DNA of 33,264 nucleotides, from contig JBFXGO010000026.1 in the NCBI GenBank assembly GCA_050239825.1, positions 1 through 33,264 of the forward strand, written 5' to 3'. This DNA comes from a bacterium. Lineage in GTDB: Bacteria > Hydrothermota > 32-111. Position 1 is the first letter of the stretch; each line of letters opens with the position of its first letter. The notes beneath the pieces are model-generated. The model worked only from the letters and a program-made list of their open reading frames with translations, was not told the DNA's origin and ran no database searches. Below, one piece after another: positions 24,339 to 33,264 of the stretch. Both the position numbers and the translations under genes were made by a program.

Positions 24339-25300
24339 AGTTTGTAATAATTGTTAAACCATGAATTGAATTTTCTGACTCCTTCGGCGAACTCTGTCTT
24401 GGGCTTGTAGGAGAATGCCTTTTCAGCCCTGCTTATGTCGGCATAGGTCTTTACCATATCGCCCTTCTTTCTCTCCGCTGTCTCAAATGAGAAGTTCGGT
24501 AAATACTTTTTGATTTCTCTGACTGTGTCTTCGGTATCTATCGGATTGGAGGAGCCTATATTGAATATGTTGATTCCATTTGTATCAAGGAGATATTGAA
24601 AACCTTTTTTTATCCCCTGCACCCCGTCATCTATGAAAGTATAGTCCCTTGAAGTGTTCCTGTATATCACAGAGATTCTCTTGTTTATATGATTTAGGTA
24701 AAGCTTATGAAGAAGCAAATCGGGTCTCTGCCTCGGTCCGTAGAGAGTGAAAAGTCTCAGAACAAGTATGTCGAGACCCATCTGTTTTGCATAGAAAGCC
24801 GCCATAACCTCATCCTGCGCCTTTGTCATGCCATAAGGCGAAATCGGATTCATTGAGTATGACTCCTTAAAGGGCATTTTTTTGTTCTCTCCATAGACAG
24901 AGGATGAAGAGAGAAAGAGCACCTTCTTTATCTTCTGCTCCACAGCGAGCGAGAGTATATTCAAAGTGCCGTCAACATTGACTGAAAAATACTCCTTCTG
25001 GTGCTCGAATGACTGTTGCACTCCCGCCATTGCGGCGCAGTGGATAATTGCGTCCGGCTTGACCTCTAAAAGAATTTTCTTCATAAGGTAATAGTCCCTT
25101 ATATCGCAGTTGAAAACATTCTGCACTCTGTCTTTCTTCAGTATGGAGGAGTTCATATCAAGGTTGGTGAGTTTTTGTTTTATGTCGTAAAAAGGAATGA
25201 AGTTATCGGCTATATAAACATCATACTCTTTCTTCATTGAGTCGTAAACGGAGCTTCCTATAAAACCGGCGCCGCCTGTTATAAATACTTTTAACTTCAT
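24335..25300 (-). CDS. NAD-dependent epimerase/dehydratase (UDP-glucuronate 4-epimerase-like)
   Basis: TGGAGFIG, SSSSVYG, YGMTK, YGPRQRPD, RDYTFIDD. Confidence 0.88.
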   Translation of the reverse strand: MKLKVFITGGAGFIGSSVYDSMKKEYDVYIADNFIPFYDIKQKLTNLDMNSSILKKDRVQNVFNCDIRDYYLMKKILLEVKPDAIIHCAAMAGVQQSFEHQKEYFSVNVDGTLNILSLAVEQKIKKVLFLSSSSVYGENKKMPFKESYSMNPISPYGMTKAQDEVMAAFYAKQMGLDILVLRLFTLYGPRQRPDLLLHKLYLNHINKRISVIYRNTSRDYTFIDDGVQGIKKGFQYLLDTNGINIFNIGSSNPIDTEDTVREIKKYLPNFSFETAERKKGDMVKTYADISRAEKAFSYKPKTEFAEGVRKFNSWFNNYYKL

Positions 25301-25350
25301 ATCTTTTTATCTTATCAAATTATATAATTAAGTCAACATGGACAAAGAAG

Positions 25351-25395
25351 TGTCTTCCTGAACTCCTCTATTCTTTTCTCTACTGTGAAGGAACT
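25351..25395 (+). repeat. 45-nt REP-like element F, copy 1 (others at 26096-26140 minus, 30527-30571 plus)
   Basis: TGYC-NNNC-TGAAC-N21-GTGAA-GNNN-CT in all three copies. Confidence 0.7.
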
Positions 25396-25416
25396 GTCAA
25401 ATGAATTATTCGTTAG

Positions 25417-25439
25417 GGAGGGTTCTAAACCCTCCTTTT
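25417..25439 (+). repeat. REP-like or terminator-like hairpin
   Basis: GGAGGGTT-CTA-AACCCTCC followed by TTTT. Confidence 0.5.
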
Positions 25440-25522
25440 ATGTTTCGCACAGGTTATCTCTTCAGTGAAGCATTTATTAGCATCTTACTCATAACAAGCG
25501 ATATTGAACTATTGATACCCTT

Positions 25523-27340
25523 TGAGTAAATAACTTGCCTTTACAGTTCCGAGGAAAAATTCCAGTACAGTTAACACTCAATATACTGCTGATTAATATT
25601 TTGTCTTTACAATAATCTTCACAAAGTTCTGGTGCAACCCGTTCCTTTCTATCATGGACGCTCGCGTCCATTACACCCTCGCCAATGTGGGGACATTCCT
25701 TCGGTGTGTCCCCACTGCAACAGGCAATTAAATAACTTATTGATACACGAAAGCTTCAAGTCGGCGAGGACGCTCCGCGCAGACGCCCATCAAGTGGTTG
25801 ACCCCTCGCTACGCTATCCCATCTTGATAAAGCGGCGAAGCGGAGTGTGTGAGCCGACGCTACGCTATTCATCAGCCCCCAAACCAGCCTTGAGCCGTGT
25901 GCCGTGTGCCTTGAGCTTAATACGGGGAGTTGATTAATATTTATTCTTTTCAATAATCTTCACAAAGTTCTGGTGCAACCCGATACCTCTATCATGTGCG
26001 CTCGCACACATTACACCCGCGCCAATGCTTTGTGAAGATTTTGGGGACATTCCTTCGGTGTGTCCCCATAACAGGTTAATAATCAATAAACTGATAGACC
26101 CTTCACGATAGTCATAACTAAAGCATAGTTCAGGGTGACACTGCTGAATAATATTTTGTCTTTTCAATTCCGAATGAGAAGCCTGTCCACAGCGCTCGTC
26201 TTTTCAATGCTTCTCATGAGGACAATCAATTAAATAACTTATTGAGAGTGAAAGCTACAAGTCGGCGAGGACGCTCCGCGCAGACGCCCATCAAGTGGTT
26301 GACCCCTCGCTCCGCTTTCCCATCTTGATAAAGCGGCGAAGCGGAGTGTGTGAGCCGACGCTATGCCCGCGTTCAGCCCCCAAGTCAGCCCTGAGCCGTG
26401 TGCCATGTGCCTTGAGCTTAATACGGGAAGATGAGTAAATGATTTGCCTTTACAACTCCGAATGAGAAGCCTGTCCACAGCGCTCGTCTTTTCAATGCTT
26501 CTCATGAGGACAATCAATTAAATAACTTATTGAGAGTGAAAGCTTCAAGTCGGCGAGGACGCTCCGCGCAGACGCCCATCAAGTGGGCAACCCCTTGCTC
26601 CGCTATCCCATCTTGATAAAGCGGCGAAGCGGAGTGTGCGAGCCGACGCTACACCCGCGTTCAGCCCCCCAAGTCAGCCCTGAGCCGTGTGCCATGTGCC
26701 TTGAGCTTAATACGGGGAGCTGATTAATATTTATTCTTTTCAATAATCTTCACAAAGTTCTGGTGCAACCCGATACCTCTATCATGTGCGCTCGCACACA
26801 TTACACCCGCGCCAATGCTTTGGAAGATTCAGGCAATTAATTAACTTATTGATAATCGTAAGCTTCAAGTCGGCGAGGACGCTCCGCGCAGACGCCCATC
26901 AAGTGGTTGACCCCTCGCTACGCTATCCCATCTTGATAAAGCGGCGAAGCGGAGTGTGCGAGCCGACGCTATGCCCGCGTTCAGCCCCCTATATTTCTTG
27001 ATTAGCGACCAGTGATATTGGACTAGTGATAGCTTTTGATTAAGATTTTGTCTTTACAGTAATCTTCACAAAGTTCTGGTGCAACCCGATACCTCTATCA
27101 TGTGCGTTCGCGTCCATTACACCCTCGCCAATGTGGGGACATTCCTTCGGTGTGTCCCCACTGCAACAAGCAATTAATTAACTTATTGATAATCGTAAGC
27201 TACAAGTCAGCGAGGATGCTCCGCGCAGACGCCCATCAAGTGGGCGACCCCTTGCTCCGCTTTCCCATCTTGATAAAGCGGCGAAGCGGAGTGTGTGAGC
27301 CGACGCTACACCCGCGTGCAGCCCCCAAATATTTCTTGAT
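25523..27340. repeat. Non-coding modular array of palindromic repeats (modules A-F plus AT-rich linkers)
   Basis: C x5 (25760, 26261, 26549, 26869, 27206); A x4 (25614, 25955, 26745, 27061); B x3 (25688, 26042, 27134); D x3 (25891, 26392, 26681); E x2 (26174, 26462). Confidence 0.92.
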
Positions 27341-27407
27341 TATTAATTCATAATCTTGATGTTTAAAAATGCAGCTTTTTGAAACCACCGTCCCTTAGAA
27401 TTCTAAA

Positions 27408-27689
27408 TCAAATCCTCTCTTCAAGCATTTTATAAACTTCGCTCTTTTCCCTCTTTCCGATTATCAGGACAGTAATGCTTTTGTCGCCGTTTACTCTGTA
27501 AGCAAGCCGATAACCCCATTTCTTTAGTTTTATTTTAAAAATATTCTTCATTCCTCTCAAACGGTCTTTCTCAACAACAGGTCCTTTGAGTCTCTCTTCA
27601 AGCTTCTTTTTGAACTGCAGCTTAACTGAATTGTCTAGTTCCTTCCACTCCCTCAATGCCTTTTCGTCGAATCTGAGCTTATATTTCAT
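27408..27689 (-). CDS. Type II toxin, RelE/StbE family
   Basis: YKLRFDEKALREWKELD, FKIKL..GYRLAY, IIGKRE. Confidence 0.9.
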   Translation of the reverse strand: MKYKLRFDEKALREWKELDNSVKLQFKKKLEERLKGPVVEKDRLRGMKNIFKIKLKKWGYRLAYRVNGDKSITVLIIGKREKSEVYKMLEERI

Positions 27690-27930
27690 TTATATCAACT
27701 TCAACTTCCCTGTTCTTCTCTTTCAATCTCGCCTTAACTTCCCCGACGAACATCAGCTCATCGTATGCCTCAAGAAGTTTCTCATACTCGGAAGGAGGAA
27801 CAATATACGCAACCGGATTATTGTGATTCAAAACAGCTACAGCATTGTTGCCGGATTTATTTATTACGGATGATGGGTTCCTCTTCAAATCACTCACCGA
27901 AACGGCATATTTTGCATGAATCTCTTTCAT
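27679..27930 (-). CDS. Type II antitoxin, Phd/YefM (StbD-like)
   Basis: SVSDLKRNP..AVAVLNHNNPVAYIVP..YE; overlaps toxin start. Confidence 0.9.
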   Translation of the reverse strand: MKEIHAKYAVSVSDLKRNPSSVINKSGNNAVAVLNHNNPVAYIVPPSEYEKLLEAYDELMFVGEVKARLKEKNREVEVDINEI

Positions 27931-27993
27931 TTTGTCTCCTTATTTGTCTCTTTATTTATCTCTTAATATAGCACAATCTATTCACTCTGTCAA
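27931..27993 (-). promoter_or_regulatory. Promoter and candidate operator of the Phd/RelE operon
   Basis: TTGACA-N17-TATATT (27993-27965); three tandem 12-mers TTTGTCTCCTTA/TTTGTCTCTTTA/TTTATCTCTTAA (27931-27966). Confidence 0.7.
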
Positions 27994-28087
27994 TCTCCCT
28001 CTTTGGATTATTGTCGGTAACTGCGAGCACTCCGCGCCAATCTCTTTACTTCTATCGCTCTTTTTCTTCTCTTTGGATAATGGATCG

Positions 28088-28375
28088 GTGACCAGTGACC
28101 AGTGATGTTTTTTCCCGCAACCCGTAACTCTCTTTTGTCTTTTGTCTTTTGTCTTTTTCTCGCCCATGGCACACGGTTCATGGCGTCTTCTCAACTCTCA
28201 ACTATCAACTATAAACTATTAACTTTCTTTTCTTGCCCCCGGCTCTCGGCCCACGGCACCCGGCGTCTTGTTGACTCTCAACTCTCAACCATCAACTATT
28301 AACTATTAACTTTTTTACCAGCGTACTAGCTTACTATTTTACTCTTTGATTTCTCGCCCACAGCACCCGGCGTCT
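28088..28375. repeat. Patchwork of degenerate heptamer tandem repeats
   Basis: (GTGACCA)2, (CCGYAAC)2, (TCTTTTG)3, TCTCAAC/TATCAAC/TATTAAC tracts at 28189-28223 and 28269-28310. Confidence 0.85.
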
Positions 28376-28452
28376 TCTCTGTCTCGCTTAAAAGTATTGC
28401 CAAAACCTATCGTCCCCGCCATTTTTATCGATCCTACATTATGTGTGATTTT

Positions 28453-29598
28453 TCATGTCAAACTTTTTTCAAAAATATCTAAATACCTTCTATAAACATA
28501 CACCTTGTTATATTTAACTTTATCATCCTTTATTTCTAAAATTCCGGCTGAAACAAATCGGTCTATAAGTTTTTGCGTGCCCGCTCGAGTATTAAATCCA
28601 GCCCAACTTTTAACAATCGCGACAGTGACAATCGGCTGCACAAAAAGTTTTGGCAATATAAGCATTGCGCTTTCAGATGATGTTTTGTTCATTTTGCTGA
28701 TTTTAGCAATATCCTGCTCCCGCAGTTGGGTTATTTTTTTGGCTGTTTCAATAGCCGATTCAGCAGTTTCGATTATTCCATCAAGAAAAAACTCAATCCA
28801 TTTTTCCTCTCTTCCTTCCCTATAATCTGTTAACCGCTGATAATAAACTTTTTTATACTTTTTAAAATAAGAAGAAAGGTATAAAACCAATTTTTCCAAC
28901 AAGCCCTCTTTCCAAAGATAAAAAGCGATAAGCATACGACCTGTTCTTCCATTGCCATCCAAAAACGGATGAATGGTTTCAAATTGCGCATGAATAATAG
29001 CAGTTTTGACTAATGGCGGAATCGCATCTTCTGAGTGAAGAAATTTCTCAAAATCTCCAAGCGCAGTCATCATAGCATCCACCGGAGGAGGAACGAACTC
29101 GGCATCACTCGGACTTTTTCCATTAATCCAATTCTGGCTCCTGCGGAAGTTTCCGGGATCTGAAAAATGACTGGCTCTTGCGCCTTTCATCAGTTTTTGG
29201 TGTATTTCGCGAATAAAGCGAAGAGACAAAGGAAATTCTTTCAATCTATCTAATCCATAATCAAGCGCCTTTATATAATGCAAGATATCATCAACATCTG
29301 ATGACTTTTTGTTTTCAATTTTCACCACTGCTTCTATTGCATCAGTCATACTTGCTTTTGTTCCTTCTATTTGACTGGAGGCAGTAGCGTCTTTGCGAAC
29401 ATACATATAAATAAAGAAATTCACATCAGGAAGTAATTGCGTGATTCCGTCCAGTTTACCCAATAACCTTGACGCTTGAGCATCTTTTTTAACAATTGGC
29501 GAAGCAAGCGTATAAAGTCCTTTGTCAGGAAAAGGATCAGGAATAAAGGCATTAAATCCATTCGGTTGTTTTATATTTTTACCGATCATATTAAACAA
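28453..29598 (-). CDS. Fic family protein (start may be 29589)
   Basis: Canonical HPFLDGNGRTGR; N-terminal SSQIEG inhibitory motif; wHTH-like C-terminus. Confidence 0.93.
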   Translation of the reverse strand: MFNMIGKNIKQPNGFNAFIPDPFPDKGLYTLASPIVKKDAQASRLLGKLDGITQLLPDVNFFIYMYVRKDATASSQIEGTKASMTDAIEAVVKIENKKSSDVDDILHYIKALDYGLDRLKEFPLSLRFIREIHQKLMKGARASHFSDPGNFRRSQNWINGKSPSDAEFVPPPVDAMMTALGDFEKFLHSEDAIPPLVKTAIIHAQFETIHPFLDGNGRTGRMLIAFYLWKEGLLEKLVLYLSSYFKKYKKVYYQRLTDYREGREEKWIEFFLDGIIETAESAIETAKKITQLREQDIAKISKMNKTSSESAMLILPKLFVQPIVTVAIVKSWAGFNTRAGTQKLIDRFVSAGILEIKDDKVKYNKVYVYRRYLDIFEKSLT

Positions 29599-29624
29599 TA
29601 TATAAGCGCATAATCAATGTTTAC

Positions 29625-29653
29625 AGTTTACACCAAACAGCATACATTGTCAA
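29625..29653 (-). promoter_or_regulatory. Candidate promoter of fic
   Basis: TTGACA-N17-TAAACT. Confidence 0.5.
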
Positions 29654-29835
29654 TGCCAATGTTCACTATTTTATAGAAACTTTCCTGAAACGGTGTCCGT
29701 ATCATTTACGCTCTCTGTCAGTATTTCCTCTGTCTTTAAATCTGTCCCTTTTTGTTATTATATCCCAGTATAATCTAAAATAAATATGAAGAATGCATTT
29801 TTACAGGCATTGTCCCTTAGAGAAGCTTTCTGCTC

Positions 29836-29872
29836 TTGACTTTTATAGAGCGTTGTATTACAATGTCTTACA
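29836..29872 (+). promoter_or_regulatory. Promoter and operator of the RHH/PIN operon
   Basis: TTGACT-N17-TACAAT; palindrome TTGTA-T-TACAA over the -10 plus a second site TGTCTTACA. Confidence 0.72.
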
Positions 29873-29882
29873 GGAGGCAATG

Positions 29883-30101
29883 ATGAACAAAACAATTACA
29901 GTGCGTCTCGATGATGAGACATCTAAAAGACTGAAGGAAATACAGAGTACCGATAAAAAAACTCTCAGCGAGATAGTGCGTGACTCCATAGAGAGCTATC
30001 TCATGATACAAAAGTTCAGAATTCTGAGGAAGAAGACTCTCCCCTATGCTGAAAAAGCAGGGCTTCTTACTGACGAAGACATCTTTGAAGCATCAAGATG
30101 A
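29883..30101 (+). CDS. CopG/ribbon-helix-helix antitoxin
   Basis: TITVRLD..L..LSEIVRDSI; C-terminal GLLTDEDIF; SD AGGAGG 5 nt before ATG 29883. Confidence 0.85.
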   Translation: MNKTITVRLDDETSKRLKEIQSTDKKTLSEIVRDSIESYLMIQKFRILRKKTLPYAEKAGLLTDEDIFEASR

Positions 30102-30496
30102 AAATAGTCCTTGACAGCAATGTCATAGTCTCCGCATTTGCTTCAAGAGGTTTGTGCTCATCCCTCTTTGAAGTTCTTATAGCAAAAGAGCAGGTAATCA
30201 CCAGTGAGCATATTCTTTCCGAAGTATCAAGAGTATTGAGAAGCAAAATAAAACTGCCTGAGAAGAATACCCGGGAGATAATTGATTTTCTTGGGGAAAC
30301 AACCGAAGTTACAGCTTACGGGAAAATGATTCAATGTGTAAGCAGGGATAAGGACGACGATGAAATGATTGCGCTCGCAGTTGCAAGCAAATCAAAATTG
30401 ATTATAACCGGAGACAAAGACCTTCTGGTTCTTAAAAAGCACAAAAACATTCGTATTCTTTCGCCAAAGCAATACTGGCTTCTCTTCCTCTCCTGA
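30098..30496 (+). CDS. PIN-domain toxin (VapC-like)
   Basis: MKIVLDSNVIVSA, RDKDD, IITGDKDLL; ATGA overlap with antitoxin. Confidence 0.92.
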   Translation: MKIVLDSNVIVSAFASRGLCSSLFEVLIAKEQVITSEHILSEVSRVLRSKIKLPEKNTREIIDFLGETTEVTAYGKMIQCVSRDKDDDEMIALAVASKSKLIITGDKDLLVLKKHKNIRILSPKQYWLLFLS

Positions 30497-30581
30497 CATC
30501 TTTCTTCTCCATTTTACTCTTTTGTTTGCCATTCTGAACGCATCTTATCACTGTTCTTGTGTGAAGAATCTATCAACCCAG

Positions 30582-30604
30582 TTGTCGCGAGCGAAGCGCG
30601 ACAA
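30582..30604. repeat. REP-like hairpin with GCGAAGC core
   Basis: TTGTCGCG-AGCGAAG-CGCGACAA. Confidence 0.6.
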
Positions 30605-30712
30605 TTTCTATGTCTCTCTTTGAACTTTTTCTCTTCTGATAATTTGTTGTGACTTCATTTCAACGGCTGTCCCCAAAATTCCAATTTTTCCACCCTCGCC
30701 GCCAATTCTTTT

Positions 30713-31138
30713 TTAGAATCCGATTTTCTTTTGCTTCTCTTCAGGTTCTTTAATCAATTGCCTTATTACCGAAAATACAGCTTTGAACTGATTGTCATAT
30801 TTTTTTTCCATATTCTCTATTTTCCTCAGTAAATCAGTATGTGATGATAATAGCAACCTAATTTTCACAAATGTTCTCATTATTTGTATATTCACACTAA
30901 TAGCTCTTTTGCTTCTCAATACACTTGAAAGCATTGCCACTCCTTGTTCGGTAAACGCATAGACTCTTGGTGCGTGTTTGATTTTCGAACTTGTCACAAT
31001 TTGTGATAAGTTCATAATCTCTTCTCTTGTTAATGAAAACATAAAATCATCGGGAAACCTCTCTATATTTCTCTTCACCGCTTGATTTAACACTCCTGTT
31101 TTTACTTTGTATAGTTCAGCCAAATCTCTATCAATCAT
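30713..31138 (-). CDS. ORF6N-domain DNA-binding protein; conserved N-terminus extends upstream without ATG
   Basis: DRDLAELY, NQAVKRNIERFPDDFMF, YAFTEQGVAMLSSVL, terminal KIGF. Confidence 0.88.
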   Translation of the reverse strand: MIDRDLAELYKVKTGVLNQAVKRNIERFPDDFMFSLTREEIMNLSQIVTSSKIKHAPRVYAFTEQGVAMLSSVLRSKRAISVNIQIMRTFVKIRLLLSSHTDLLRKIENMEKKYDNQFKAVFSVIRQLIKEPEEKQKKIGF

Positions 31139-31234
31139 AACCCTCTGATGTCTTATTAAATATATTTTATTTTCAATCAGACTTGAACCGATTTCTGCCC
31201 TCTTCGCCTCCTGATTTTCTTTCCATCAATTCAA

Positions 31235-31264
31235 AATTGTCAAGAGGTCTTGCACCGTACCCCC
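31235..31264. repeat. 30-bp direct repeat, copy 1
   Basis: AATTGTCAAGAGGTCTTGCACCGTACCCCC, identical to 32440-32469. Confidence 0.92.
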
Positions 31265-31267
31265 TAG

Positions 31268-31690
31268 TCAATCAGAAAATATTTTTTTTATCTCCTCAAC
31301 ACTTACAACAATATGTTTGATAAAAAGAACTGCCACAGTCAGACCTGATGCAACAAAAACACTTAAAACTGCATATAACAGAGGAGTCATGTCTGAATGT
31401 TCACTGTTGCCAAGTTCTCCTCCGATAAGCCCAAGTGTAAATACAGTTGTTCCTATGAGCGTCACAAAAGCTCCTATTTTCAGAGTTTCGCCTACTAAAA
31501 AATTAGTTGCTACAATGCATACTTTAAGAATCCTTCCTAATGTCTTATCTTTAATTGGCATATCTTTATTTTGTTCAGCTTCAGTTTTTAAACTCCTTTC
31601 GTTATCTATGCCTTCACCGAATACTTTCAGAGGATTGATTGATGCAACAATAATAACCATGAATAAAACTATCAGTATTTTAGTATCCAA
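31268..31690 (-). CDS. Hypothetical membrane protein
   Basis: TTG start overlapping upstream gene; N-terminal hydrophobic segment plus C-terminal TM helices. Confidence 0.6.
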   Translation of the reverse strand: MDTKILIVLFMVIIVASINPLKVFGEGIDNERSLKTEAEQNKDMPIKDKTLGRILKVCIVATNFLVGETLKIGAFVTLIGTTVFTLGLIGGELGNSEHSDMTPLLYAVLSVFVASGLTVAVLFIKHIVVSVEEIKKIFSD

Positions 31691-32318
31691 TATAGTATTC
31701 CCATAAACTTTGAATTAATTCTTCAAAAAGCATTGAAATCAAATCAAAAGAATAAAATAGTGCTATAGCAACTGGAGCCGGTACAGCAATTAACAATATG
31801 GTTTCAACCAGCTGAAAGTCGGTATTATTTATAAACGACATCGCAGCTATAACAGGAATACTCAGTATCGGAACAGCGAGCAAACACCCTAGACAGAGCA
31901 ATCCCGTGTCTGCAATTTTTAAATACGGAGGATAGTATCTTCTATTAAGGCGCTTAAGATAATATTTCCAAAGACCTTCTCCTTTTCCAAATACCGCACT
32001 CAACTTTTTATTTCTTTCTTCAATGTATATTTTGTTCTGATATTGGTCCATCCTGAAAAATCCTTCAATTGTATATTCATTATCATCTTCAAAAACAAAA
32101 TCATCAACAGAATCTGTCTTTTGCCTGTCTATGAACAGACTATCATAGTCAGTCAGAGCTCTCCTCAAAGTTTTTATTCTGCTTCCTTTAAAAACAAACG
32201 TTTCTTTTATCAGGCTGTCGTCGTTTGTTTCAAAAATGTACTTTATATCCTTATGTGCGCCATGTATATTTGCCGTCATTATCAACAAGGCAGTAAAAAA
32301 AATGAAGAAATTCTTCAT
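31680..32318 (-). CDS. Hypothetical membrane protein
   Basis: Signal peptide MKNFFIFFTALLIMTANIHG; two C-terminal TM helices; AT-rich. Confidence 0.65.
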   Translation of the reverse strand: MKNFFIFFTALLIMTANIHGAHKDIKYIFETNDDSLIKETFVFKGSRIKTLRRALTDYDSLFIDRQKTDSVDDFVFEDDNEYTIEGFFRMDQYQNKIYIEERNKKLSAVFGKGEGLWKYYLKRLNRRYYPPYLKIADTGLLCLGCLLAVPILSIPVIAAMSFINNTDFQLVETILLIAVPAPVAIALFYSFDLISMLFEELIQSLWEYYIGY

Positions 32319-32439
32319 ATGTATGATATTGGTTCTAAAAAATTTATGGTTCTTCGTCTAATCAATTACTCCTCCGACTTTAAATCTATACCTTTTTATA
32401 ATTATATCCCGACACAATTTAAAATCAATAGTGTAATTG

Positions 32440-32469
32440 AATTGTCAAGAGGTCTTGCACCGTACCCCC
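32440..32469. repeat. 30-bp direct repeat, copy 2
   Basis: Identical to 31235-31264; C-run extends to 32473. Confidence 0.92.
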
Positions 32470-32473
32470 CCCC

Positions 32474-32565
32474 GTTCTGTGTGAACCTTCCTGTCCCTCA
32501 AATGTGCACTTGTTTTTTATCAACACCTTGTCTATTTCCCTCCACCCGAGAGATTTCAGCTTCAT
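32474..32565 (-). pseudogene. hicA: Truncated HicA toxin (first 30 codons)
   Basis: ATG 2 nt after hicB stop; MKLKSLGWREIDKVLIKNKCTFEGQEGSHR with GSH motif, then runs into the repeat. Confidence 0.75.
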
Positions 32566-32567
32566 AT

Positions 32568-32885
32568 TCAGGAAAATGTGGGTATTGGAATATTATTCCT
32601 TTCAATTATATTCATTGATTTTTTTGTCGATTTTCTCACTGGCGGTTCAATGGTGAGTTTCGCCGGATTAATCTTCCATCCCTGTTTTAGCAAATCCTGT
32701 TCCAATGTTCCGTGCTTTATTGTCTCACTGAAATATATTTTTATTGCTTCTTTAAAATTCCTTTTTGCCGATTGTAAAGTATCTCCGCAAGTAGAAATAT
32801 CAAGAGCATTTGTATGAGCTATGAACATTTCATCCTCTTTAAAAATTATAACAGGTATAGTTCCAACAATTTTTATTTTAACCAT
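32568..32885 (-). CDS. hicB: HicB-like antitoxin
   Basis: IFKEDEMFIAH..LDISTCGDTLQSAKRNFKEAI; SD AGGAGG. Confidence 0.8.
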   Translation of the reverse strand: MVKIKIVGTIPVIIFKEDEMFIAHTNALDISTCGDTLQSAKRNFKEAIKIYFSETIKHGTLEQDLLKQGWKINPAKLTIEPPVRKSTKKSMNIIERNNIPIPTFS

Positions 32886-32902
32886 TTTTGCCTCCTAGTA
32901 AA

Positions 32903-32931
32903 AATATACATCTTAATTCGTGAATTGTCAA
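32903..32931 (-). promoter_or_regulatory. Promoter of hicB-hicA
   Basis: TTGACA-N17-TATATT. Confidence 0.68.
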
Positions 32932-33264
32932 CATAAACGACCTGTTTTGCCGCTCTTAGTCAGAATGGTGATTTTTGCAACCACCGACCCTAAAAATTGT
33001 CGTCCTGACGTTTTTTCTCATAACCCGCAACTCGTAACTTTCTTTTTTTGGACTCGTGATATTTTTTTTGCTTGAATTTACAAATTTACATGCACCGTCC
33101 CCGCCCACTTAATCGCGGCCAATTCGGCCAATTAACAGCCAATTATTTCAAAGTATAAAATGCACCTCTGCCTTTGGTGGCTGGCGGGTTAAAAAATCCT
33201 TTTTCAACCAGTTCTCCTTTTATATCCTTCTTTTATATTCTCTGACTCCATGCATTCTTTCTTG

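Follow-up and report, generated by a model that had tools for sequence, protein, structure and literature searches.

The stretch analyzed here (33,264 bp, called the window) is one whole contig, C48, of the 67-contig, 2.1-Mb assembly of a bacterium labeled G000, whose contigs bear C-numbers below. Its right-hand part holds a stack of small gene units punctuated by a co-oriented short motif, CACCGTCCC. This motif is almost certainly the outer tip of terminal inverted repeats (TIRs) of 25–30 nt that flank Y1/HUH transposase genes, the arrangement known as the TIRtron, with its enzyme TIRYT of subclass 2.1. Comparisons with relatives suggest that such an enzyme may act here like an integron, without an integron recombinase. 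The relatives include two congeners of G000 (G001 and G002) and members of another genus, g5, in the same WOR-3 family (G006 and G010–G013).

A sequence-only reading of the window had listed eight copies of the motif, all of which we located on the same strand, and had proposed a short 9-nt site. Genome-wide, CACCGTCCC occurs 56 times against 3.0–3.8 expected under order-4 and order-5 Markov models; the looser 9-mer variants, by contrast, stand at their Markov expectation (CATTGTCCC, 17 vs 14–16; GCTGTCCCC, 3 vs 5–8; CATCGTCCC, 6 vs 5). Copies of the motif group into families by their 20 adjoining bases, and the site is not the 9-mer itself but the tip of a 25–30 nt repeat that is present in several families throughout the genome. 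Scanning with 35 seed 22-mers yielded 118 matches at ≤4 mismatches, compared with 0 in the reversed genome at that level; merging of overlaps and removal of five doubtful 4-mismatch matches left 100 ends. These comprise 26 ends in 13 same-family inverted pairs, 14 ends facing a contig end and 60 lone ends. The 13 pairs (120–980 bp) are four TIRtrons and nine mini-elements, and at least five TIR families coexist in the genome.

Four complete Y1_Tnp (PF01797) genes were found in G000, all on contigs other than the window, and each lies between inverted copies of a single family: A on C14, B on C5, C on C56 and D on C18. Family E ends border pieces of Y1 genes at contig ends. Besides these 4 of 4 complete genes, a TIR pair flanks the Y1 gene at 17 of 20 further loci in the family and at 58 of 80 distant loci. 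All four proteins carry HYH and YxxNP, and H59, H61, Y118, N122 and P123 are invariant in the seven sequences aligned. The C14 and C5 proteins have C-terminal matches of the HTH_23/HTH_7 helix-turn-helix (HTH) type (E 3e-5 and 5e-4), just below the curated cut-offs; the C56, C18 and G013 proteins gave no Pfam HTH match, though a long C-terminal extension is present in them. The C5 protein scores 73 bits against NCBIfam REP_Tyr_transpos (cut-off 80), and the closest named relatives of the G000 proteins are in Stahlbacteria and WOR-3. Because the motif ends TIRs that flank such genes here, the enzyme acting in trans on it is most likely of the HUH/Y1 kind, similar to the transposases (RAYTs) associated with repetitive extragenic palindromes (REPs), as had been guessed from the window alone.

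The further suggestion that the system was undescribed does not stand. Site and enzyme are those of the TIRtron and TIRYT, defined by Di Nocera, De Gregorio and Rocco in 2013 (PMC3733652); the available text of Quentin et al. 2018 (10.1101/279083) equates TIRYT with TnpA-Y1 subclass 2.1 and ranks this as the second largest Y1 group, present in 14.9% of strains sampled. Common to both descriptions and our loci are a Y1 gene between TIRs, a G-rich head, the Y---NP signature, a C-terminal HTH (by Pfam in two of our four proteins), and TIRs occurring as singles, dimers and groups. The head here, GGG(G)ACGG, is close to the published consensus GGGGWSAS but one letter off it: GGGGACGG matches it at 7/8 positions, the start of families A and B (AGGGACGG) at 6/8, and family D reads GCGGCGGG. 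The other differences are the multiplicity of families in one genome and the presence of lone ends in head-to-tail gene arrays, at whose outer ends units are reordered, gained and truncated.

Each window site was scored as a 32-mer against the TIR ends of other contigs, the null being every further position in the genome that has the same final 5-mer. Six of the eight listed sites are clear TIR ends and two are decayed; all read on the minus strand. The sites at 27394, 28416, 32990 and 33101 score above every null position. The first is a lone family B end (27365–27394, minus strand reading GGGACGGTGGTTTC...), and 27365–27395 is identical at 31/31 positions to the TIR upstream of the Y1 gene at C5:5123–5153. 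The second is a lone TIR-like end of family F (28384–28416, GGGACGATAGG...), with near-identical copies on C8, C24, C28, C44 and C47 and in G001; no flanked Y1 gene was found for this family among the genes examined. The third (32961–32990, GGGTCGGTGGTTGC...) is a lone variant of family B, 96% identical to C22:10779–10805 and above all 1908 null positions, and the fourth (33075–33101, GGGACGGTGCATGTAAATTTG...) is a lone family E end, 33075–33102 being 96% identical to the TIR before the Y1 gene start at C56:108–135. The sites at 31262 and 32467 belong to an E variant (GGGTACGGTGCAAGACCTCTTGACAATT) at 31235–31264 and 32440–32469, identical at 30/30 positions with no third exact copy in the assembly; their score is reached by 2 of 1517 null positions. 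These two ends form a direct repeat, the second heading a 1205-bp unit (31265–32469). Of the decayed sites, 30673 (30645–30673, A-like) has a score reached by 4 of 1326 null positions, and 29816 (29790–29816, probably B-like) is weak, at 14 of 1326; G001 has an intact TIR end at that place before its copy of the RHH-PIN unit described below. A ninth, decayed end absent from the earlier list lies at 30680–30702 (D-like, GCGGCGAGGGTGG...; 4 of 3144 null positions reach its score), family D being the one that flanks the C18 Y1 gene.

Several observations concern the TIRs themselves. Many families contain a 5–7 nt interior repeat with a period of ~9 nt (TTGAC..TTGAC, TTGTAAAT..TTGTAAAT, TGCAA..TGCAA; for example at window positions 33075–33092 and at L202, L204 and L208), a candidate pair of HTH sites. 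The interior repeat of family E resembles a -35 box directed into the unit. Identical element ends recur at contig breaks (family G at C3, C9, C13, C23, C28 and C41; family E at C10, C67, C21, C56 and C57), as would be expected of a TIRtron present in several copies that failed to assemble and that may have been active recently. C3 and C56 have 17 nt of outer flank in common despite different TIR families. By reading of the sequence, several TIR ends appear to adjoin tRNA genes (C5:5152, C56:11936, C28:13896, C7:21003, and C1:1147957 of G013).

Of the neighboring ends within 4.5 kb of one another in G000, 13 cases are the same-family inverted pairs, 30 are in direct orientation (in 20, the two ends belong to different families) and 4 are neither. 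Eight relatives gave 57 direct neighbors, 17 facing within 1.1 kb, 0 facing beyond that distance and 3 back-to-back; these counts used exact or one-mismatch head patterns, excluded G009 and the partly listed G011, and come from kin that are not independent. Similar arrays occur on C28, C17, C44 and C18 of G000 and in G002, G004 and G007. That on C28 (35815–46484) has five co-oriented ends behind stop codons and a repeated two-gene head. Replication-strand bias as the cause of co-orientation is unsupported: contig skew does not fix the orientation, and on a 1.39-Mb contig of G013 both orientations are interleaved.

The proximity of motifs to minus-strand stop codons seen earlier is real (13, 36, 39, 3 and 41 nt from motif end to stop), yet it is not special to lone ends. 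Ends lie within 50 nt behind a stop codon in 9 of 26 paired cases and 15 of 60 lone ones; since both classes show it, this closeness carries no weight. As an attC-like mark it was rejected, stop:start ratios being 15:2 for lone and 9:1 for paired ends (the gene caller missed several island genes).

The clearest changes at TIRs come from the relatives. In g5, a genome mostly carries a single Y1 gene, whose locus is conserved, and a single TIR family; one TIRtron locus is conserved within that genus, and two are common to G000 and G002. G010 and G013 have orthologous arrays, of 9 and 7 ends respectively, whose units are 82–93% identical and stand in different order, one being doubled in G013; homology of the units starts at the GGG. 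One TIR-headed unit was found at three places with unrelated upstream DNA. In G010, three genes are truncated where they meet the outer side of a TIR; 7, 12 and 24 bases of filler precede the GGG. In G006 (39 bp), G012 (128 bp) and G010, additional TIR-headed units adjoin the outer end of a TIR already present. The family B TIRtron of G001 has an insert of 6.45 kb, with eight called genes, at its outer end; G000 and G002 lack this insert, which begins with a copy of the other end's outer flank. G002 carries two cassettes each at two TIR-bounded places, at 92–93% identity. Among 15 orthologous TIR pairs, a scripted rule scores the outer side as altered in 6; counting two further pairs, with block edges 10 and 19 nt outside, the figure is 8 of 15, compared with 0 altered on the inner side. 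Of 30 hand-picked block edges (tile edges removed), 13 fall 0–45 nt outside the head, 3 inside the TIR and 14 far off. The expected gain and loss at the motif is seen between relatives, along with reordering, but not exactly at the motif: breakpoints lie ~0–45 nt outside it, often with filler. Twelve short TIR-bearing contigs of G010 were considered as possible circles and rejected, the placeable ones matching ordinary chromosomal junctions. Two CRISPR-like arrays in G010 (L077:13130–17800 and L111:6100–7750; a 30-nt repeat with spacers, one by a cas2-like frame) stop 22–36 nt outside the outer end of a TIR; G013 has different DNA at both positions.

Some junctions bear scars. At 9 of 220 distinct TIR heads, 15–27 nt are doubled (~7–14 nt of outer flank plus the first 4–14 nt of the TIR), compared with 3 of 781 control positions (Fisher p 1.2e-4); the nine are spread over six genomes. 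Such duplications would fit a nick just outside the head, a short 3' extension and rejoining, and slippage is a possible source of single ones. TIR interiors also shift in concert within each species, even at orthologous sites, which suggests that something rewrites the ends, or that selection keeps them matched to the resident enzyme. Six "inner" duplications were excluded as scars, five arising from the TIR's own internal repeat and one from the interior of an element.

We propose that the lone ends are read in trans by TIRYT enzymes encoded elsewhere in the genome, each enzyme family having its own TIR interior, probably bound by the C-terminal HTH. Judging from HUH chemistry and the scars, the nick would fall on the strand reading GGGACGG, a few to ~25 bases outside the TIR, and the enzyme would keep the TIR-side 5' end, which would then be free to join some other 3' end. 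A short extension followed by rejoining would account for the small head duplications; if the partner were instead a distant 3' end, outer-side DNA would be deleted or replaced, as perhaps at the broken hicA described below; and exchange between two nicks on the same strand would cut out or insert a TIR-headed unit. Strand polarity would be kept, so ends would build up head-to-tail between the toxin-antitoxin, defence-like and orphan genes of an array. The published text on E. coli TnpA-REP reports 5'-phosphotyrosine links, cuts away from its site and strand exchange, and proposes that the enzyme excises circles and takes up flanking genes (PMC3333891). On the comparisons made here, we lean toward such a mechanism, with nicking outside the TIR, same-strand joining and array building, as probable on balance. 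The fuller picture, which we offer tentatively as plausible but somewhat short of probable, is that this WOR-3 family has an HUH-based equivalent of the integron, made up of domesticated TIRYT enzymes and their lone TIR ends: the enzymes would nick just outside the head, free units as single-stranded DNA circles, join units or incoming 3' ends before another head, and so reshuffle arrays of toxin-antitoxin, defence and surface genes, with several enzyme–TIR pairs serving one array.

A number of results weigh against this proposal. Window units can be compared only with the congeners, at ~80% identity. There relBE, RHH-PIN (ribbon-helix-helix antitoxin and PIN toxin) and ORF6N lie at other loci, and in both G001 and G002 the shared sequence covers no more than promoter to stop codon, beginning near the -35 box or the start. 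A TIR end does stand before RHH-PIN in G001 and behind ORF6N in G002; none was found behind relBE in G001 or G002, nor before RHH-PIN in G002. Sequential capture of the window's own units, as first imagined, is conjectural; their homologs in the two congeners mostly lie beside other repeats. At the window locus itself, G001 has an island with cargo and mosaic spacers and no TIR end in the 3.3 kb examined, and G002 has one TIR end, facing the opposite way. Contigs of four sequencing runs were compared with the window. Those of the probable source run match it and cannot bridge the 30-nt repeat, and they provide no strain-level contrast; a second run yielded short pieces only and the other two almost nothing; a contig joining 28417 to 32393 most likely represents another genome locus, since C8 carries both pieces. 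Many lone ends are stable, 7 of the 15 orthologous TIR pairs being unchanged; in a 190-kb comparison of G013 with G011, 4 of 7 breaks are far from any TIR; and small indels show no outer bias (2 outer and 2 inner of 24). None of the nine head duplications is in G000. The best evidence of shuffling is from a different genus, in which there is a single TIR family and direct repeats of 29 nt could recombine with no part played by the enzyme. At the 80 distant loci, lone ends near the enzyme gene were 13 co-oriented vs 9 opposite; being few and unbiased there, they indicate that dense arrays may be a trait of this family, and generality of head-to-tail arrays beyond it is unsupported. Finally, the literature searched, supplements being outside the search, yielded no biochemistry of subclass 2.1.

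The strongest rival, which we regard as unlikely, is that the enzyme just makes or refreshes ends, as RAYTs do for REPs, that lone ends are remnants of TIRtrons and mini-elements settled between genes, and that host recombination or slippage among those in direct order shifts, duplicates or removes the units. The 13 complete inverted pairs speak for it, standing behind stop codons as often as lone ends do. So does the concerted behavior of TIRs in g5: all ends of one genome are near-identical 29-mers, and they shift together by species. Against it, the 20 of 30 direct neighbors in G000 that belong to different families have only ~9 nt in common, a crossover within the repeat would neither truncate genes beyond it nor produce filler or a duplicated head with outer flank, and the near-absence of back-to-back ends would be left unexplained.

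More doubtful still, we think improbable, is that the islands were made by other routes (repeat-linked nucleases, integrases, transformation) and that late-arriving TIR ends only trimmed the outer side until selection stopped them at a stop codon or promoter, with no unit mobilized. The TIR-free island of G001 at the window locus speaks for it, as do the spacers, which are mosaics of several unrelated repeat kinds. The C14 TIRtron likewise agrees with it: relative to the empty site in G001, where no target-site duplication was seen, the TIR has replaced the neighbor's stop codon and now supplies one. But the reordering and duplication in G010/G013, the unit at three unrelated places and the gains at outer ends are not deletions.

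That the window holds an integron cassette cluster with decayed attC sites (a CALIN, or cluster of attC sites lacking an integron integrase) and that the motif is incidental is highly improbable: cargo types resemble those of integrons, but our own pattern-and-pairing scan of 27300–33264 (IntegronFinder was not used) found two R-box pairings, neither with matching R and L boxes, the tyrosine recombinases score best as Xer, the units have their own promoters, and there is no notable Rfam match. In line with the earlier expectation, neither attC nor an integron integrase was found in these scans. Three PF00589 stretches above cut-off in the 67-contig assembly, compared over their catalytic stretches only, score higher with XerC, XerD or XerA profiles than with TIGR02249. 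A weak PF00589 match on the C14 Y1 protein falls on the HTH tail and does not mark an integrase, and the Rfam scan of 25000–33264 gave one chance match (E 0.99).

Turning to the cargo of the window, most units do begin with a TTGACA/TTGACT promoter-like site of their own, as had been noted: such sites head the relBE, fic, RHH-PIN, ORF6N and hicBA units (27 found vs 17.6 ± 4.4 in shuffles), and a TTGACA at 31243 lies within the TIR itself. The gene families named earlier also hold by Pfam, HicB weakly, but RHH-PIN lies on the opposite strand from the rest. From the left, a RelE/ParE-family toxin gene (27408–27689, minus strand; PF05016, E 7e-11), with its stop 13 nt outside the TIR end, is followed by a Phd/YefM antitoxin gene (27679–27930, minus; PF02604, E 3e-13) with a promoter-like site at 27993–27965 (11/12); copies of this relBE unit in G001 and G002 are 81% identical. 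Positions 28000–28383 are a mosaic non-coding spacer of short repeat modules known from other genome islands (blastn matches including C28, C44, C49, C63, C15 and C24). The Fic-domain, SoFic-like gene (28453–29589, minus) matches PF13784 and PF02661 and PADLOC SoFic (E 2e-111), with a promoter-like site at 29653–29625. A leader module at 29726–29786 (minus) is an 80% identical direct repeat of 32370–32430 and occurs also on C8, C15, C17 and C46. Taken more widely (29726–29786 and 32361–32436 in the window, those four contigs, and L025:1787–1842 of G001), the module has a promoter-like and a ribosome-binding-like part ahead of differing cargo genes.

The ribbon-helix-helix antitoxin gene (29883–30101, plus; PF01402; promoter-like site 29836–29864) precedes the PIN-domain toxin gene (30098–30496, plus; PF13470, E 3e-14). 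The ORF6N-domain gene (30713–31138, minus; PF10543, E 7e-27; PADLOC PDC-S05) is of uncertain start, its frame being homologous to ~31177; its unit is 84% identical in G002, where the TIR end follows its stop. The frame runs upstream at 31139–31200 beyond a GGAGG, and because AGG stands where G002 has ATG, the start may be lost or shifted. Two orphans lie in the 1205-bp unit on the minus strand: a membrane-protein-like gene from the open reading frame list (31268–31690), with its stop 3 nt outside the TIR end and no family above cut-off, and a gene for 212 aa (31680–32318) with no match in Pfam, NCBIfam, PADLOC or by Atlas features. Beyond lies the 5' fragment of hicA (32470–32565, minus), interrupted at a junction as the sequence-only reading had it: the gene is broken after codon 30 at the outer end of the TIR with its site at 32467. 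The fragment is 69% identical to residues 3–31 of an intact 73-aa homolog in G007, which is part of a hicB-hicA pair; the 3' part was not found in the G000 assembly. The unit between identical ends and the broken hicA would fit the mechanism proposed above. The HicB-like antitoxin gene (32568–32885, minus) matches PF15919 weakly (E 0.029) and has a promoter-like site at 32931–32903. The 3' end of a further gene (33143–33264, minus, by translation), its stop 41 nt outside the last TIR end, is cut by the contig end; a contig from the probable source run continues past this point into another spacer module.

Other repeats accompany these genes. Window positions 25520–27340 are an array of modular hairpin repeats of ~300–350 bp, present in >100 copies in the genome and holding its most over-represented 9-mers; some copies have family B TIR ends built in. 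The spacers at 28000–28380 and 30500–30640 contain 7-nt tandem repeats and modules of the GTCATT...GAAGAATCT type on one strand, and the TIR-free island of G001 contains the same modules.

Three other known systems bear comparison. In REP and bacterial interspersed mosaic element (BIME) systems with TnpA-REP (Ton-Hoang et al. 2012, PMC3333891), too, a domesticated HUH enzyme encoded at one fixed locus serves many short sites in trans and cuts outside the site it binds (as proposed here). In place of a GTAG-footed hairpin or palindrome, the sites here are linear 25–30 nt TIRs starting GGGACGG or GCGGCGG, and the units are kilobase gene blocks rather than BIMEs. Integrons and CALINs also have unrelated accessory genes between co-oriented sites just behind stop codons, in an order that varies between relatives, with toxin-antitoxin and orphan cargo; units gained, lost or reordered at a repeated site, an integron-like trait, were seen in G010/G013, G001, G002, G006 and G012. 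By contrast, no attC, attI or IntI was found here in the scans described above, junctions are imprecise, cargo has its own promoters on either strand, and the chemistry is proposed to be that of HUH enzymes, through a 5'-phosphotyrosine. IS91 and ISCR elements move by one-ended rolling-circle transposition with an HUH enzyme, one end being fixed and the other variable, and capture neighboring DNA. The HUH enzyme is common to both, and the fixed end, the variable end and the capture of neighboring DNA would have likenesses here; the differences are a Y1 enzyme of the IS200/RAYT fold, symmetric TIRs, an enzyme gene unlinked to the array and many lone ends in series. No Y2/ISCR gene with oriIS/terIS was found beside the array DNA (the IS91 profile was not searched), and the cognate genes are PF01797 Y1 genes on other contigs. 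The gene-acquiring role of IS91/ISCR is mentioned in the text of PMC3333891.

In the full-text literature searched, supplements lying outside the search, we found no description of TIR-delimited cargo or gene arrays. The published TIRtron account (PMC3733652), in its available text, describes TIR singles, dimers and clusters, with no cargo arrays or mechanism; that of Bertels et al. 2017 (PMC5581495) gives no account of TIR-delimited gene arrays or subclass 2.1 biochemistry, and that of Corneloup et al. 2021 (PMC8266576) does not mention TIRs. The family itself is known; what is new here, on comparison of genomes, is the head-to-tail lone ends, the change on the outer side, the reordered TIR-headed units and the head duplications.

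It has long been asked why hosts retain domesticated Y1 transposases. Our comparisons offer a testable answer: subclass 2.1 enzymes would remodel the DNA outside a short linear site, building variable gene arrays, and the scars predict the strand and rough position of the nick. If the changes are not enzyme-driven, the TIRYT identity still accounts for the motif of the island. If they are, these bacteria would have a second route to cassette arrays, overlooked by attC-based searches, and a small recombinase with a 30-nt site.

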